Below are positions 51,001 to 57,000 of a DNA stretch of 64,000 bases, one piece after another. A program made the position numbers. Position 1 is the stretch's first letter. Each line of letters starts with the position of its first letter. Origin of the DNA: an uncultured Methanosarcinales archaeon (GTDB taxonomy: Archaea > Nanobdellota > Nanobdellia > Woesearchaeales > GW2011-AR9); the NCBI GenBank assembly GCA_964604645.1, contig CAZRZP010000002.1, positions 141,739 through 205,738 on the forward strand, written 5' to 3'.

Positions 51001-54000
51001 ACATCTGTAAAATTAGCAATTCCTCCTACGATGAACAAAATCTTTCCATTATTGGCCGTCATTAGTCTCAAGATTGTTTTAGCATATTGATAAGATTCTT
51101 CTTTTGAGGGATTTCCAGAATTTTCTCCGTAATTTGCAATTTCATCACCTCTTCCTAAATTGGTAATCATATCTAGATAGATGATACTGGCTCCGCCTCC
51201 ACCTAATATGTTCCATATTTTTCCTTGTGGATTAAGAATTGATAGTTTTAAAGAAGCGCCACTATTTTTGTCTAATTCTTCAATATATTTTTCTTCTGGA
51301 AAGTCTCTTTTACCAAATTCTTTGGGAAATGAATTTACAAAGGAATTGGCGCAGGAATCAACTTTTGCAACACAATCCAAAAGATGAATGTTGTTGTTTG
51401 TTGTTGTAAATGGATTGAATTCGAGATAGGAAAAACCATTTTTGCGGAAGATGTTAAATGTTTTTTCGATGAAGTTAGTAATAGTTAGGTTGTTTGATAT
51501 AGTTTCAAAACTTGGTATATCTTGTAAAGTTGGAACTTCTATTTTTTTAACATTACCCCAATTATCTTCAATATCAATTCCTCCTTTTTCTGAAAATATA
51601 ATTGTATCGTATTCTCTTTCAGATGTAAATGCTAGATAATATTCATTGTCATGTTCAATATACGGTTCAATGAGAAAGTGTGTTAGGATATCTTTACTTT
51701 TTCCTATTGTAACTTCTGAATTTCTTTTTTCTTTAATCCAATTTTTGACTTCTTCTAAACTTCCGCTGAAGATAAGATTGTTCTTTTTTCTTTTTCCAAA
51801 TAATTGATCTGGTTTTACAATTAACTTGGGTGTGGTTGTGTGTATTGTGTCTAAATCAGTTTCAGGTTTGATTAAAATTCCTTTGTAATCTATTCCTAAC
51901 TCTTTACAGATGAATTTCTTTGCATCATATTCCCTTATACCTTTCCTTGCCATTTGAATATTCTTGTTGATTTTAGCTTTAAATAGTTAGTGTTTTTAAG
52001 AAAGTTTCTATTGTTTAGGGGTGACTCTCTAGTTTACTAATTTTTTTTCTTTTCTTTTTTCCGTTACCTTTTAATAATCATCACCTCTTCAATAGAATAT
52101 GCCATGTGAACTCTGCGGTAAAGATACAAACCTAATCACAGCTGATGTGGAGGGTGTTGAGTTAAAGGTGTGTAGTGACTGTGGTAAGTTTGGAAAGATT
52201 AAACAACGAGCTAAAAAGTCTGAATTTAAGCCGGTTAAGTACAAACAACAGAAAGTTGAACAACCACAATTTTCTATAATTTCTGATTTTTCTTCTATCA
52301 TAAAATCTGCTAGAGAGAAGAAAGAAATGTCTCAAGAAGATTTTGCTAAATTTCTTAATGAACGCGTTTCGGTAATACAAAAATGGGAAGCTAATTCTTT
52401 AAAACCTAGGATAGATATTGCACGGCAACTTGAAAGAAAATTAAGTGTTAGATTAGTTATTAGAGATCAAATAAAAAAGGTTGAACTTAAACATGAAAAG
52501 AGCGATGAGTTAACTTTGGGAGATTTTGTTAAAGTAAGAAAGCGATGACAAAACATTTATTCAAATCACAAAAAGGTTGATAGCCAAAAGGTAACTAATC
52601 CAAGAATAACGCCACCTAAAATATCAACAGAATCATGTTTCTTCAAATAAATTCTTGAATACATAACTCCAACTGCTATCAGGCCAAAAATGATTCTTAA
52701 ATGTAAAAAACTAGTAAGTGCAAAAACGAGAAATATTATTCTTGCTGAGTGCCATGAAGGAAAAGAAGATGCATCAATCTTTTCAATAAAATTGTTATAT
52801 TTCTGCTTATTTGGTCTTGATTTGAAATAGAATGTTCTAATTCCGACTACAATGACTAAAGTAACAATAAATCCAAAGATTAGATCAATGAATATTCTTT
52901 GGTCAATAAATAGAATAGTTAAGGTTAAGAGCAAGTAAAATGGCGTTCCTCCCAAAGCAGTTAAATCACGCATGATTGTTTTTAGGAGGTTCATGCTACC
53001 AAGAAGAATAGCAAGTATAAAAGTTTAACCATAAATTAATAATGTGGTTATTATCAGCCATACTAATAAACCAATAACTAAACTCTTGTCTTGAAATACT
53101 TTTTCAGGGTGTCTGGAGATTGGTGAGTTCTGTAGAATTAAAAGATAATATCTTAAGATGAGAAATATTGCGAATGGCAGTGAATATATCAAATAATTAT
53201 AGTTGCTTAGGAAAGAATAAAGTGCGTATGACATGATAAGTAAAGTAGTTGAAAGAACCATCATTGAATGGGTAAATTCTAATGTGTAATCTTTTAGAAC
53301 TTTTCTGCTTTTCTTAACTCCTAACAGAAGATCTCCGTGTCTCTTTCCTACCGACAAGAAAAGAGACAAGAAAAAAGGGACTAAAATGAGCCATGGAGAG
53401 ATTAACACAGAAATTGCTACCGCACCAGCTATTGCTCTAATTACAAAAAGGATAGCTATTGTTAGCACATCAGCAATTACAATTTTTTTCAAGAAAAGTG
53501 TGTATATTAATGTTAATAAAAAAACTGAAGATGCCAATAACATAAATTCTAAATTAATTAATGATGCAAGTAGCAATGAAATGATTAACACCAAACTCGA
53601 AGTTATGCTAGCTTGTTGAACTGAAATAATGCCGGCAGCAATTGGCCGCTTTCTTTTTTCAGGATGTAATCTATCTTTTTTCCTGTCAAAAATGTCGTTA
53701 ATAATATACCCGGATGATGAAATTAAAGCTAAAGAAACAAATGCTACTAGCACAGTTTTTATTTGAATAAAATCAAACAAATTTCCTGAAAAAAAAATTG
53801 CCAGAAAAACAACTGTATTTTTGTACCATTGATAGGGTCTTAGGAGGGTAAGTATGTTTTTTATTTGTTTACTAATCATTTTTCATTTACTTTAGGCAAA
53901 TAGATCTTATATGTACACTTTCTTTTCTTGTATGTATAAGTTTTACTATAAACTTCATTATTTTCTTTTTTTATATCTTGATGTAGTTTTTCAATACGTG

Positions 54001-57000
54001 CAGTACACACATTATCGTTTATTTCGCAGGCAAAATCGCAACTATCCACAAACATTAATTCATATTTTCCTTTACTTACATTGTAAATAACACTTGCATA
54101 TTCAGCTCCACTAAATAAAATTAAATTATTTTCAACAAATGAAACAAAAGCTGGATCTGAAGATAGAATTGGTCCAGTAATATTATTTTCCTTTATAATT
54201 TGCTTTACTTCTTGTGTGAAGTCGGGAGAGAATTCAAAATTAATCGTTGTTGGAATGTAACTTATTACTAGTATTGCGATAAGAATGATGAATGCTTTTG
54301 GTCTTATCAAAGGTTTTGGGTGTTTTTTTATGTATTCATATAAATGTACGAGAGCAAAGGCAATTAATATTGTAAAAAATGGAACTGCTCCAACCATATA
54401 TCTTACTTCTTTTCTTGGAACTGTTTGAAAATATACTAAAGTGAGGGTTGGAATCAAAAAAATCACTAGTTTACGCCAATCTTTCCAATGTTTATATTTG
54501 AAGAGTAAATAGATGTAACCAAAATAAAATAAATATATTGGCTGCTGAAAAAAGAAATGAGTGAAATAATAAAATAAACCACTTCCGTATAAGTGGGTTG
54601 AGGTAGTTACAATCCACGATGCTGAAATGAAAGGTTCTAGCGGGTTTGGATAGCGGTAATAGTTAAAGATGAAATATGGTGCTACTGTAATTATAAAACC
54701 AGCTGTTAGAAAAATGATTTTTTTTATTGTTGTTAAAATGATTTTGTTTGTTTCATTTGGTGAGTGTTGGTTCTTTAAATTTCTTACAAAGAGTAATACT
54801 ATAAATATGACTCCGAAATAAATTCCCTGAGGAAATTTAGTGAGGAATGATAAGCCTCCAAACAGACCAGCCAAAAAGTAATTAGGCGTAGATTTAACAA
54901 AAAAATAGATGCTAAGTAAACCTAAAAAAATAGCTAATGGTTCTGTTAAAACTAATCCTGTGAATATAAAAAAAACAGGAGTTACAGAAAATATTAGAGA
55001 AGCAATAAAACCAACCCTCTTTGAAAATACGCGTGTTCCAATAGCATATACTAAAGCAACAGCACCTACTGAGAAAGCCAAATCAGCAATTTTACCAAAG
55101 ATAACTGGGCTAATTCCTTTACTCCAAGCAAAACCTAATAGTAAAGGATGAACAAGGGGACGGAATGATTCCCATAAACCTACGCTTCCGTTAGAAAAAA
55201 TATATTTACCCATTCCAACGTATACATGCCCATCCCACCATAAAGGAAGGTTAGCTGACAAATAAATAATTCTTAGAATTAAAGCTATTCCTAAAACTAT
55301 TACAATATCTTTTTTTTGTATTTTCTCTTTAATCTTATTAAAAATAATCTTCATTATTTATTACAATGTTCTGAATCTTGAAGAGATTTACATATAATCT
55401 TTTGTAACCTTTCTCTACCTAAGACGCCTTCATATTTTTTGTTGTCAATGATGGAGGTGGGGAATTTATTTATTTCATACTGGCTTACCATAATTTCAAT
55501 CATTGGCTCTTGATCTCTGTAATCGAGATTTATTGGAAAAACTAAAATCTCTTCGCCAAAAAGTTGTTTGAAGTAAGTAAAAATGGTTCCTTGATTAGGA
55601 CAGGAAGGACAGTCAGTTGAATAGAAATACAAAACAGGAACAAGGTTAATATTACATTGCTTTTTACTTTGTATTGCTAGTAACCAATATCTTAAATTGT
55701 CCAATGTATATCTCCTTATGACTAAATCTTTTCTTTTGTTACTTGCATCATTTTCTTCTTCATATGCGATTACTTCACTTAATGAATCAGAAAGATCTTT
55801 TACTGTTTCTTTTAATGCAGTAGCAAGAATTGGACAATTATCTTGGTTAGAAAAAGAATTTAGGTAGAGATGTTGTAGCTGAAGGCTAAGATACTTAACT
55901 TCTAATTCTTCATTTACTTCTTGAGTTAAATCATATCTATGGTTCTCAATAACAAGACCAAATGTAATTCCTAAAAAGAAAATTAACAAGGTAATAATGC
56001 CAGCAGTAATGTACTTTTCTTTACTAATTGTTCTCCAAACAGGTTTTTTTACCATTTAACCCTCCTACTTTTAGAAAATTCTGCTAATGATAATAAAAGA
56101 ATTGCTCCTTTCAAAACATAATAAAACAGAAAATAAGGTATTAATGGTATCCAACCAAATTTGCTTATTTTTTCTTGTGCATTTCTATGTGCTTGATGAA
56201 AAAAGAAAAATCCGACCATGAATAAGGAAATAATAATTATTCCTTTTCTGAAATCTAGAGTTAAAAAGTCCATTATTGATAAATCTAATTTGAAGTTTGT
56301 GATATATGGAATGATGTTAAATTTCACTAAAAATAAATTCTTAATCCTAGTTAACAGTGGGATGAGGAATAAGTAACTTACCGCTAAGAGACCAGTTATC
56401 GCTAAAAAATAACCAGCAACGTTTTTAATCATTTGAATAAAACCAAAGTCTCCATATTTTTTGTCAGCCATCAATTCTTTGTATTGGTAAACAGAGGAAA
56501 TACTACCTAAATACCATCTTCTCCTTTGCCGGTAGAAAGGCTTTAATTTCCCTGGTGCTTTGGTAAAAACATACCCATCAAAACATTGTCTTATTTTTAA
56601 TTGAGCTTTCTGTACCCTATATGCTATCTCTTGATCTTCAGTGAGACTTTTTTCATCAAAACCTCCAAGATTCTTGATTACTTCAGTACGGTAAAGAGAG
56701 AATGGTCCAGGCGCTACATAAAGACTATCTAAGTGGCTTGAAACTCTTGCAATAAGAATAATAACCAAATATTCAAGCCATTGAATCTTTTCAAGAATGG
56801 TTTCCGGCTTATATACTTTCATTGCAGGAGTTATGATAGCTACTTCTTCTTGCTCGTCTTTTTCAAACATAGCCAGCATCTTTCTTAAAGTCAAAGAATC
56901 AACGAAAGAATCTGCATCCAAACAAGCAAAATATTTTCCGTTTGCTTTTTTCAAAGCATTGTTAAGAGATTTGGCTTTACCTGCATTTTTTTGATTTATC

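Follow-up and report, generated by a model that had tools for sequence, protein, structure and literature searches.

A candidate operon for a PRPP-derived, lipid-linked ribofuranose donor in Woesearchaeota

We analysed a 64-kb stretch of DNA, referred to below as the window (contig CAZRZP010000002.1, positions 141,739 to 205,738, of assembly GCA_964604645.1), from an uncultured archaeon deposited under Methanosarcinales and placed by GTDB in the Woesearchaeales. Within it, a block of seven genes on the minus strand (52566-60306) is, on balance, best read as a conserved Woesearchaeota envelope-glycan operon that makes and uses polyprenyl- or dolichyl-phosphate ribofuranose. The reading centers on the three genes at the 3' end of the block, which encode a GT-C-fold glycosyltransferase (53876-55354), a UbiA-superfamily protein (53025-53879) and a PAP2-family lipid phosphatase (52566-52994). 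A first-pass annotation of the window had singled out these three open reading frames (ORFs) at 52566-55354, and all are present there on the minus strand; the trio is real, but the 2.8-kb unit drawn around it is too small, as the conserved unit comprises seven genes. The gene structure, the family and fold assignments, the conserved residues and the synteny were established directly; from these we infer each step of catalysis, as well as the carrier lipid and the acceptor.

Family assignment of the UbiA protein

The UbiA-superfamily gene (Pfam UbiA 1.8e-32) encodes a protein of 284 aa that we hold with good confidence to be an enzyme of the polyprenyl-phosphate 5-phosphoribosyltransferase (PPPRS) type, that is, similar to the decaprenyl-phosphate 5-phosphoribosyltransferases (DPPRS). 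We scored it against 22 NCBIfam models of the UbiA family. The three DPPRS models gave 205.6, 182.5 and 135.5 bits and the HAD-UbiA fusion model PRK08238 gave 174.4 bits, while the best model of any other subfamily reached 67 bits, and the models for digeranylgeranylglyceryl phosphate (DGGGP) synthase, heme O synthase and 4-hydroxybenzoate prenyltransferase fell at 47-54 bits. A search of the PDB matched the mycobacterial DPPRS Rv3806c (8j8j) at E=3.8e-36 over residues 7-276, and an archaeal DGGGP synthase (6m31) at E=2.9e-6. In a rough neighbor-joining tree carrying no support values, the protein joins sequences of the Rv3806c type and lies well apart from another outgroup of the UbiA family, and the archaeal sequences cluster together, apart from the bacterial ones including Rv3806c. 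Several Woesearchaeota homologues, 52-55% identical, already bear the name ‘decaprenyl-phosphate phosphoribosyltransferase’ from the NCBI pipeline. The signature motifs quoted in the first-pass annotation were all located by script (RPYQWYKN at aa 14, NDIFDRKKD at aa 61, RAIAGAVA at aa 148 and GKR at aa 178), along with an additional UbiA motif, HPEKRKRP, at aa 72.

The cryo-EM structure of Rv3806c allows the substrate contacts to be compared residue by residue. In that enzyme N73 and D77 bind Mg2+, R22, K87, R90, K143 and Y138 hold the pyrophosphate of phosphoribosyl pyrophosphate (PRPP), K28, Y70 and Y157 hold the 5-phosphate, and Q135 contacts the ribose O3; the phosphoribose-binding residues are not common to other UbiA enzymes (PMC10994848). 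To read the equivalent positions, we used MAFFT to align Rv3806c, 81 fetched loci (given here by L numbers) and 119 Woesearchaeota-type proteins. Nine of the eleven contacts are identical in the window protein (R22, K28, Y70, N73, D77, K87, R90, Y138 and K143), and a tenth, Y157, is conservatively replaced by F, a change that occurs in some mycobacteria (PMC10994848) and in 37 of 69 bacterial homologues. This pattern of contacts recurs in 12 archaeal loci and in the 119 Woesearchaeota-type proteins. At the seven Mg2+ and pyrophosphate positions the archaeal loci show no change or only K/R exchanges, and nearly all of the Woesearchaeota-type proteins do likewise, five of them having N for K87.

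These results bear on whether a DGGGP synthase of membrane-lipid synthesis, or another housekeeping prenyltransferase, has been misread as a phosphoribosyltransferase. Absences in the window were judged from Pfam tables tiling the 64 kb and from phmmer searches with the DprE1-like, flippase-like and DUF362 neighbors found at other loci, and no second UbiA-family gene was seen there; reconstructions of DPANN metabolism also treat Woesearchaeota UbiA genes as ether-lipid enzymes (PMC8204110). The two DGGGP synthase models nevertheless score the protein at only 51.3 and 47.5 bits, with cut-offs of 353 and 296, the PDB match to 6m31 is far weaker than that to Rv3806c, and the operon setting is one of glycosylation, not of lipid synthesis. 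Moreover, the protein has K28, Y70 and, as F, Y157, phosphoribose-binding residues missing from other UbiA enzymes, and it keeps the HPxKRxRP loop on which K87 and R90 lie. On the family-model scores, the PDB E-values and the PRPP-contact residues we rejected the DGGGP synthase identity, which appears very improbable. The model scores and contact residues place the protein outside the DGGGP synthase and housekeeping UbiA clades, in keeping with the DPPRS-type assignment made at first pass.

The phosphatase, the glycosyltransferase and the predicted pathway

The block is transcribed in the order STT3-like protein (489 aa), STT3-like protein (473 aa), GT2 synthase, thioredoxin-like protein, GT-C glycosyltransferase (492 aa), UbiA and PAP2. 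The same seven-gene order is found on seven other Woesearchaeota contigs, with UbiA proteins 51-57% identical to that of the window, and because of this recurrence the arrangement lies far beyond chance. The block recurs in Woesearchaeota genomes L004, L005, L006 and L010 and on the long contigs L086, L087 and L088, and its usual flanks are RadB on one side and MBF1, AglB, GT2, DUF2304 and GT4 on the other. In the window, Pfam tables place the archaeal marker genes RadB, HVO_2718-type MBF1 and AglB among its neighbors; these markers, the synteny with Woesearchaeota metagenome-assembled genomes (MAGs) and the Woesearchaeota- or Nanoarchaeota-named homologues of three of the genes indicate an archaeal origin.

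Coupling of UbiA to the GT-C gene, as proposed at first pass, is borne out at the junction, where the GT-C stop and the UbiA start share an ATGA in a 4-base overlap (53876-53879; the 492-aa ORF terminates ...AAATGA), and by the GT-C fold of the 492-aa protein. In L006, L086 and L087 the overlap of the two genes measures 4 to 11 bases. Further upstream, the GT2 and thioredoxin-like genes overlap by 7 bases and the thioredoxin-like and GT-C genes by 1 base.

The PAP2 gene starts 30 nt past the UbiA stop and encodes a protein of 142 aa (Pfam PAP2 2.4e-11) whose catalytic motifs are intact here and in four orthologues: C1 RTFYFKSRP, in which R replaces the usual K, C2 PSWH and C3 SRIYLKKHDSVD. The pair thus has the same makeup as mycobacterial Rv3806c/Rv3807c, as the first-pass annotation had it. 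In six of the seven other Woesearchaeota blocks PAP2 directly follows UbiA, overlapping or abutting it, and among the fetched DPPRS-like loci a neighboring PAP2 was seen only in the Woesearchaeota clade. The nearest solved structure is the lipid phosphatase LpxE (6ebu, E=1.9e-6). By analogy with Rv3806c/Rv3807c, the protein is a candidate 5'-phosphatase that would act on polyprenyl-phosphate ribose 5-phosphate (PMC5964476, PMC11127046). The L087 block, which has no PAP2 gene, parallels the dispensability of Rv3807c in mycobacteria (PMC5964476).

The 492-aa GT-C protein (Pfam PMT_2 1.2e-08, GT39-GT83-like) gave no match when its single sequence was compared with the PDB by phmmer, and we therefore relied on a profile and an AlphaFold2 model (mean pLDDT 93.4), both built from an alignment of 50 homologues. 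The top sequence-profile match in the PDB is ArnT (5ezm, E=5.3e-08), whose donor is an undecaprenyl-phosphate pentose. The significant Foldseek matches (E<=0.001) are GT-C enzymes throughout, namely STT3/AglB, ALG9/ALG12, ArnT, PglB, Pmt4, DPY19 and AftB, the last ranking 29th (9dlh, E=5.5e-4), and PimE and EmbA/B follow at weaker E-values. We assign the protein to the ArnT/PMT/ALG9 type of enzymes, which take their sugars from polyprenyl-monophosphate donors. The first outer loop of GT-C enzymes carries the catalytic acidic residue; here that loop has invariant W40, D41, E62 and R65, and R318 and Y319 are invariant as well. All named homologues are from Woesearchaeota, Nanoarchaeota or unclassified archaea, and the ‘GT39’ names that homologues bear, with the PMT_2 match, suggest a GT-C family other than GT136, that of the Citrobacter enzyme compared below.

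Together these assignments outline a pathway. At the cytoplasmic face, the UbiA enzyme would move ribose-5-phosphate from PRPP onto polyprenyl phosphate (in archaea, dolichyl phosphate), a step suggested by homology and the conserved PRPP-binding residues. The adjacent PAP2 would then strip the 5'-phosphate, giving polyprenyl-phosphate ribofuranose, the lipid-linked sugar would reach the outer face of the membrane, and the coupled GT-C would transfer the pentofuranose to an acceptor outside it. That acceptor would most plausibly be a beta-glycan from the co-operonic processive GT2 synthase, or alternatively surface proteins. Given that no DprE1/DprE2 was found in the 64 kb and no epimerase in the operon, the transferred sugar is most likely ribofuranose itself. 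The first-pass annotation had raised a lipid-linked ribofuranose as a possible product; we keep it as the most likely one, but it is no longer a hypothetical compound, having been demonstrated in bacteria (PMC11127046).

Several points weigh against the pathway as stated. The UbiA protein falls below the curated equivalog cut-offs of NF008977 (205.6 against 234) and NF008978 (182.5 against 207) and, with its top score just below the cut-off, its label is a clade assignment, not an equivalog call. The window holds no flippase gene of the MATE, small SMR/EamA, GtrA, Wzx or LPG_synthase_TM types, and no PRPP synthetase was seen in it. The eleventh PRPP contact, Q135 of Rv3806c, is T117 in the window protein and is not conserved: the position is T, S or G in 12 archaeal loci, Q, N or H in nearly all bacterial homologues, and mostly T or S, less often N or E, in the 119 Woesearchaeota-type proteins. 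From sequence comparison, this change could mean a different donor, or it may be a clade-specific difference in the sugar pocket and not a disqualifier; in Rv3806c the Q135 Ala mutant retains 30% activity (PMC10994848). The window also contains genes for epimerases or dehydratases of the short-chain dehydrogenase/reductase (SDR) family (9911-10849, minus strand, 41319-42323 and 42367-43347), which might act on a lipid-linked pentose. Finally, the best NCBIfam matches of PAP2 are undecaprenyl-diphosphate phosphatases (1.3e-10 and 4.4e-10, far under cut-off), and the L087 block is otherwise identical but has no PAP2 between UbiA and MBF1 (8001-9349).

The Q135 substitution and the SDR genes would suit a variant in which the same donor pathway ends in another sugar, with an unlinked epimerase giving arabinofuranose (Araf) or xylofuranose, or with a phosphosugar donor other than PRPP. 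The epimerase could be an SDR like ORF13 of Citrobacter or a DprE1/E2 pair elsewhere in the genome, the inspected stretch being 64 kb of a 402-kb scaffold, and SDRs related to those in the glycan island of the window adjoin DPPRS-like genes in L022, L049, L048, L052 and L077. Yet the window SDRs sit among nucleotide-sugar genes (UDP-glucose dehydrogenase, DegT aminotransferases), as ordinary nucleotide-diphosphate-sugar enzymes would, and all PRPP pyrophosphate and 5-phosphate contacts are kept, Y157 as F. On none of the eight contigs does the block include an epimerase. Pfam tables and phmmer showed no FAD_binding_4 (DprE1-type) gene in the window, nor any DprE1/DprE2-type epimerase near the block, which agrees with the first-pass observation that none was visible, and the syntenic Woesearchaeota blocks have no FAD_binding_4 protein. 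We consider a different final sugar unlikely. An epimerase for lipid-linked pentose was sought in the operon and none was found, and by context the window SDRs look like nucleotide-sugar enzymes.

The SDR gene at 9911-10849 adjoins UDP-glucose dehydrogenase, and its product matches (E=6.6e-145) an SDR at L049 12814-13740, which lies 2 kb downstream of a DPPRS-like gene in a Methanosarcinales MAG. Similar SDRs adjoin DPPRS-like genes in 11 fetched loci.

A further alternative is that the block reflects generic clustering of envelope genes and not one pathway, so that PAP2 recycles carrier lipid, the GT-C uses a dolichyl-phosphate (Dol-P) hexose, and the DPPRS-like product serves another purpose. 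The PAP2 matches, the block without PAP2 and the dispensability of Rv3807c in mycobacteria (PMC5964476) would all fit this, but PAP2 overlaps or abuts UbiA in six of the seven other blocks. A Dol-P-hexose could come from a GT2 resembling Dol-P-mannose synthase (217 aa, 45237-45890, next to AglB) together with DUF2304, a pair conserved a few kb from the block, and the nearest GT-C folds include the Dol-P-mannose users ALG9/12 and PMT; set against these are the overlap of GT-C with UbiA here and in three other blocks, and the independent adjacency of DPPRS-like and GT-C genes in bacteria of the candidate phyla radiation (CPR). Given also that the only known role of polyprenyl-phosphate ribose is that of a GT-C donor or donor precursor (PMC11127046), we regard mere clustering as quite improbable, and the ribofuranose pathway as the better account.

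Other members of the block, its surroundings and the wider family

The remaining four genes of the block precede the trio in transcription. The first-pass annotation had noted more GT-C-like membrane proteins downstream; they are real and belong to the same operon, although they lie at higher coordinates, which is upstream in transcription. Pfam and NCBIfam gave nothing usable for these two proteins, which were identified by comparing profiles with each other and by searching for similar folds. The opening gene of the block (58837-60306, minus strand) encodes a 489-aa STT3/AglB-like GT-C protein whose AlphaFold2 model (pLDDT 90.2) matches STT3A/B, yeast Stt3 and AglB in Foldseek (E=4e-13 to 5e-10, TM-score 0.67-0.76). 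In place of the WWDxG motif its family has L[LP]EEGH (here LPEEGH), which aligns to WWDFGH of the window's AglB; it has a [DE]-S-Y-F motif in the first outer loop, and its orthologues carry PMT_2 matches and ‘GT39’ names. The second (57375-58796, minus strand) encodes a divergent 473-aa paralog of it (hhalign 98.6% over 332 columns), which also aligns with the family of the 492-aa GT-C (hhalign 90%). The L[LP]EEGH or degenerate motif suggests that these paralogs do not recognise N-glycosylation sequons. The tandem pair (57375-60306) is kept across Woesearchaeota beside a canonical AglB, here at 45995-48913.

Between these paralogs and the 492-aa GT-C lie two further genes. One (56049-57341, minus strand) encodes a 430-aa membrane-integrated processive GT2 synthase of the PgaC/IcaA, NodC or cellulose-synthase type (Glycos_transf_2 3.6e-30; NCBIfam PgaC_IcaA 4.1e-48, below cut-off), with the motifs DAD142, TED234 and QRRRW272 and C-terminal transmembrane segments. 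The other (55354-56055, minus strand) encodes a 233-aa membrane-anchored thioredoxin-like protein with one N-terminal transmembrane segment, a CPSC motif at aa 149 and weak Thioredoxin_2, TraF and TrbB matches, and is kept in the block. Conserved cysteine pairs occur in the C-terminal outer domains of the 492-aa (C443/C450) and 489-aa (C468/C484) proteins, and these pairs and the CPSC protein hint at dedicated extracytoplasmic disulfide formation in the GT-C outer domains. The STT3-like paralogs and the thioredoxin-like protein most likely belong to the same machine as UbiA, PAP2 and the GT-C.

Taken as a whole, the block might encode an unrecognised Woesearchaeota envelope polymer, a tentative proposal in which a GT2-extruded beta-glycan would receive ribofuranose outside the membrane from dolichyl-phosphate ribose and the STT3 paralogs would carry out a transfer that is not N-linked. 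The build logic would be that of mycobacterial arabinogalactan, and the STT3-derived paralogs, with LxEEGH for WWDxG, would perform O-glycosylation or ligate the polymer to protein or lipid.

Scans of 52000-60900 for sigma-70 promoters (31 promoter-like sites against 40.4 in shuffles) and for intrinsic terminators (chance level) are uninformative for an archaeon. Ahead of the first gene, 24 nt from its ATG, lies the element TTTATATA (60331-60338, minus strand). It could serve as a TATA box of the archaeal kind, with the operon transcript having a short leader or none, although chance could also produce it at 31% G+C.

Beyond Woesearchaeota, DPPRS-like proteins form a large family (1,616 clusters at 50% identity with E<=1e-30) found in Patescibacteria, Bacteroidota/Ignavibacteria, Chloroflexota, Acidobacteriota and others, and, among other archaea, in Altiarchaeales, Diapherotrites and Methanosarcinales. 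Single-sequence phmmer found the other members of the block only in close Woesearchaeota, and the distant loci were compared by neighbor clustering and profile HMMs. Which accessory genes are present varies between lineages: some bacterial loci (L029, L081, L082) have a DprE1-like oxidase gene after UbiA, and elsewhere the companions are DUF362, SDR epimerases, LPG_synthase_TM or small SMR/EamA-like proteins. Twenty-nine of 86 GT-C homologues seem to share a contig with a UbiA homologue from the top-120 list, which is soft evidence of wider co-occurrence. DPPRS-like genes also adjoin GT-C genes in Levyibacteria and Saccharibacteria. About 30 loci from Levyibacteria-type CPR (L036-L083, for example L039 4500-10950) keep one order of TatD, GT2 (497 aa), PMT-like GT-C (494 aa), a 117-aa protein, MraY/WecA-like GT4 (359 aa) and UbiA (315 aa), which looks like a second, independent pairing of DPPRS with GT-C. 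Several of the Levyibacteria-type MAGs are labelled ‘Gammaproteobacteria’, apparently a misclassification.

Other loci place DPPRS-like genes in varied company. In a Woesearchaeota locus (L009 5527-15950) the companions are an HldE-like kinase/adenylyltransferase, an FAD oxidase, and two genes each of the GT9 heptosyltransferase-like and DUF362 kinds; a Nanoarchaeia locus (L007 5596-11918) combines DUF362 and LPG_synthase_TM with genes for a B12-radical SAM protein and an FAD amine-oxidase-like protein; and a Diapherotrites locus (L022 25-4509) has a Wzx-like flippase, an SDR epimerase and LPG_synthase_TM. The helix-turn-helix gene of the MBF1/HVO_2718 type (52099-52548, plus strand, in the window) is convergent to the DPPRS-like gene or its PAP2 in Woesearchaeota, and directly follows the DPPRS-like gene in two Methanosarcinales MAGs (L013 10851-11318; L049 10827-11294).

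Genes for both the alpha and beta parts of ATP-citrate lyase (48975-51953, minus strand) lie between MBF1 and AglB in this genome only; in the other Woesearchaeota blocks AglB directly follows MBF1, with no such genes between. Homologues (E ~1e-110 and ~1e-77) are found about 5-7 kb from the DPPRS-like gene in Levyibacteria (L036 17566-20558; L071 15534-18514), and this shared proximity may reflect transfer between DPANN and CPR.

The far side of the window, positions 1-46000, is a nearly continuous cell-surface glycan island. It contains UDP-glucose dehydrogenase, several SDR epimerases/dehydratases, DegT aminotransferases, several GT2 and GT4 genes, carbamoyltransferases (16336-18096 and 25464-27209), a 680-aa B12-radical SAM protein (22897-24939), large methyltransferase/adh_short fusions (32053-36041) and a split transketolase-like pair (36038-38946).

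Significance and comparison with known systems

In known archaeal surface glycosylation, dolichyl-phosphate carriers receive their sugars from nucleotide sugars. If the pathway is correct, a UbiA enzyme that draws on PRPP would provide a second route for charging the archaeal carrier and would introduce pentofuranoses into archaeal glycans; the resulting lipid-linked sugar donor would be the first in Archaea to derive from PRPP. Woesearchaeota are uncultured DPANN organisms thought to depend on cell-cell contact, and since the block is kept across many of them and adjoins AglB, it is probably a core envelope feature. The envelope-polymer proposal, if true, would supply candidate enzymes for archaeal glycosylation that is not N-linked. 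The proteins are compact, at 142 to 492 aa, and assays exist for their bacterial counterparts.

A full-text literature search, with most subscription-journal papers outside its coverage, found no archaeal description of a PRPP-derived lipid-linked donor. The first-pass view that such a system was undescribed for archaea agrees with this literature, though the NCBI pipeline already names Woesearchaeota homologues DPPRS. In one DPANN paper a UbiA gene from Woesearchaeota is given the generic role of a prenyltransferase for ether lipids or quinones (PMC8204110); DPANN UbiA genes are often read in this way, which calls for caution in annotation, as it inflates the inferred lipid-making ability of these organisms. 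The chemistry itself is not new, nor is any principle; what is new is the archaeal, operon-level version, set in another domain of life, with a free-standing PAP2 of the mycobacterial kind, what looks like a different GT-C family, no recognisable flippase, and a block that includes STT3-like paralogs and a GT2 synthase. It would extend the bacterial three-component pentofuranose systems described in 2024 to a second domain.

The decaprenyl-phosphate arabinose cluster of M. tuberculosis, like the window, places a DPPRS-type UbiA beside a small PAP2 and a GT-C, with a GT2 polymerase in the cluster; the Rv3805c-Rv3808c neighborhood holds AftB (GT-C) and GlfT2 (GT2) beside Rv3806c/Rv3807c. The two differ in gene order, and presumably in carrier, which would be dolichyl phosphate in the archaeon where mycobacteria use decaprenyl phosphate. 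The mycobacterial pathway includes a DprE1/DprE2 arabinose step with no equivalent in the window, the window GT-C resembles ArnT/PMT/ALG9 more than AftB or Emb, and the window GT2 is a membrane-embedded processive synthase (QRRRW) and not of the GlfT2 type. PAP2 appears dispensable in both (L087; PMC5964476).

Pentofuranose donors of this kind also serve protein glycosylation outside actinobacteria. In Pseudomonas aeruginosa group IV pilin glycosylation (the PsPA7_6246 cluster and TfpW), a DPPRS orthologue likewise feeds a polyprenyl-phosphate pentofuranose to a GT-C, and the target is a surface protein (PMC11127046; bioRxiv 10.1101/2020.04.19.049825). That system has DprE1/E2 homologues and transfers D-Araf to pilin, whereas the window locus has no epimerase.

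ArnT, like the proposed window GT-C, takes a pentose from a polyprenyl monophosphate carrier at the outer face of the membrane. Its 4-amino-4-deoxyarabinose donor is built from a UDP-sugar by the GT2 ArnC, where that of the window would be built from PRPP by the UbiA enzyme, and its acceptor is lipid A, which archaea lack. Within Archaea, AglD, AglR and AglS of Haloferax volcanii provide a precedent for the transfer of one sugar from a dolichyl-monophosphate donor by a multi-spanning transferase outside the membrane; there a GT2 makes the donor, Dol-P-mannose, from a nucleotide sugar, and no PRPP, UbiA-type enzyme or pentofuranose takes part.

A closer precedent than mycobacteria is provided by the three-component systems of Kelly et al. 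2024, in which ribofuranose is used without epimerisation. In Citrobacter youngae O1, the O antigen receives ribofuranose through the joint action of a PPPRS, a phosphatase, a flippase and a GT-C, and such systems are predicted widely in bacteria, with archaea outside the coverage of that study (PMC11127046). The logic of Citrobacter ORF15, ORF14 and ORF12 is the one we propose for the window: a PPPRS and a 5'-phosphatase provide the donor, and once the polymer has been made, a GT-C attaches the pentofuranose on the outer side of the membrane. The window locus encodes a PPPRS-type enzyme together with a phosphatase, whose 5'-phosphatase role is predicted, and its 492-aa protein provides the GT-C; a dedicated flippase of the MATE or SMR/GtrA type, which is part of the bacterial systems, is absent from the locus. 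The phosphatase is a fused HAD domain in the Citrobacter type and a separate PAP2 in the window, as in M. tuberculosis. Citrobacter ORF12 founded GT136, resembling no existing glycosyltransferase family, whereas the window GT-C matches PMT_2/GT39-type models. Unlike its Citrobacter counterpart, the window operon adds two STT3-like paralogs, a thioredoxin-like protein and a GT2 synthase, and its host is an archaeon.

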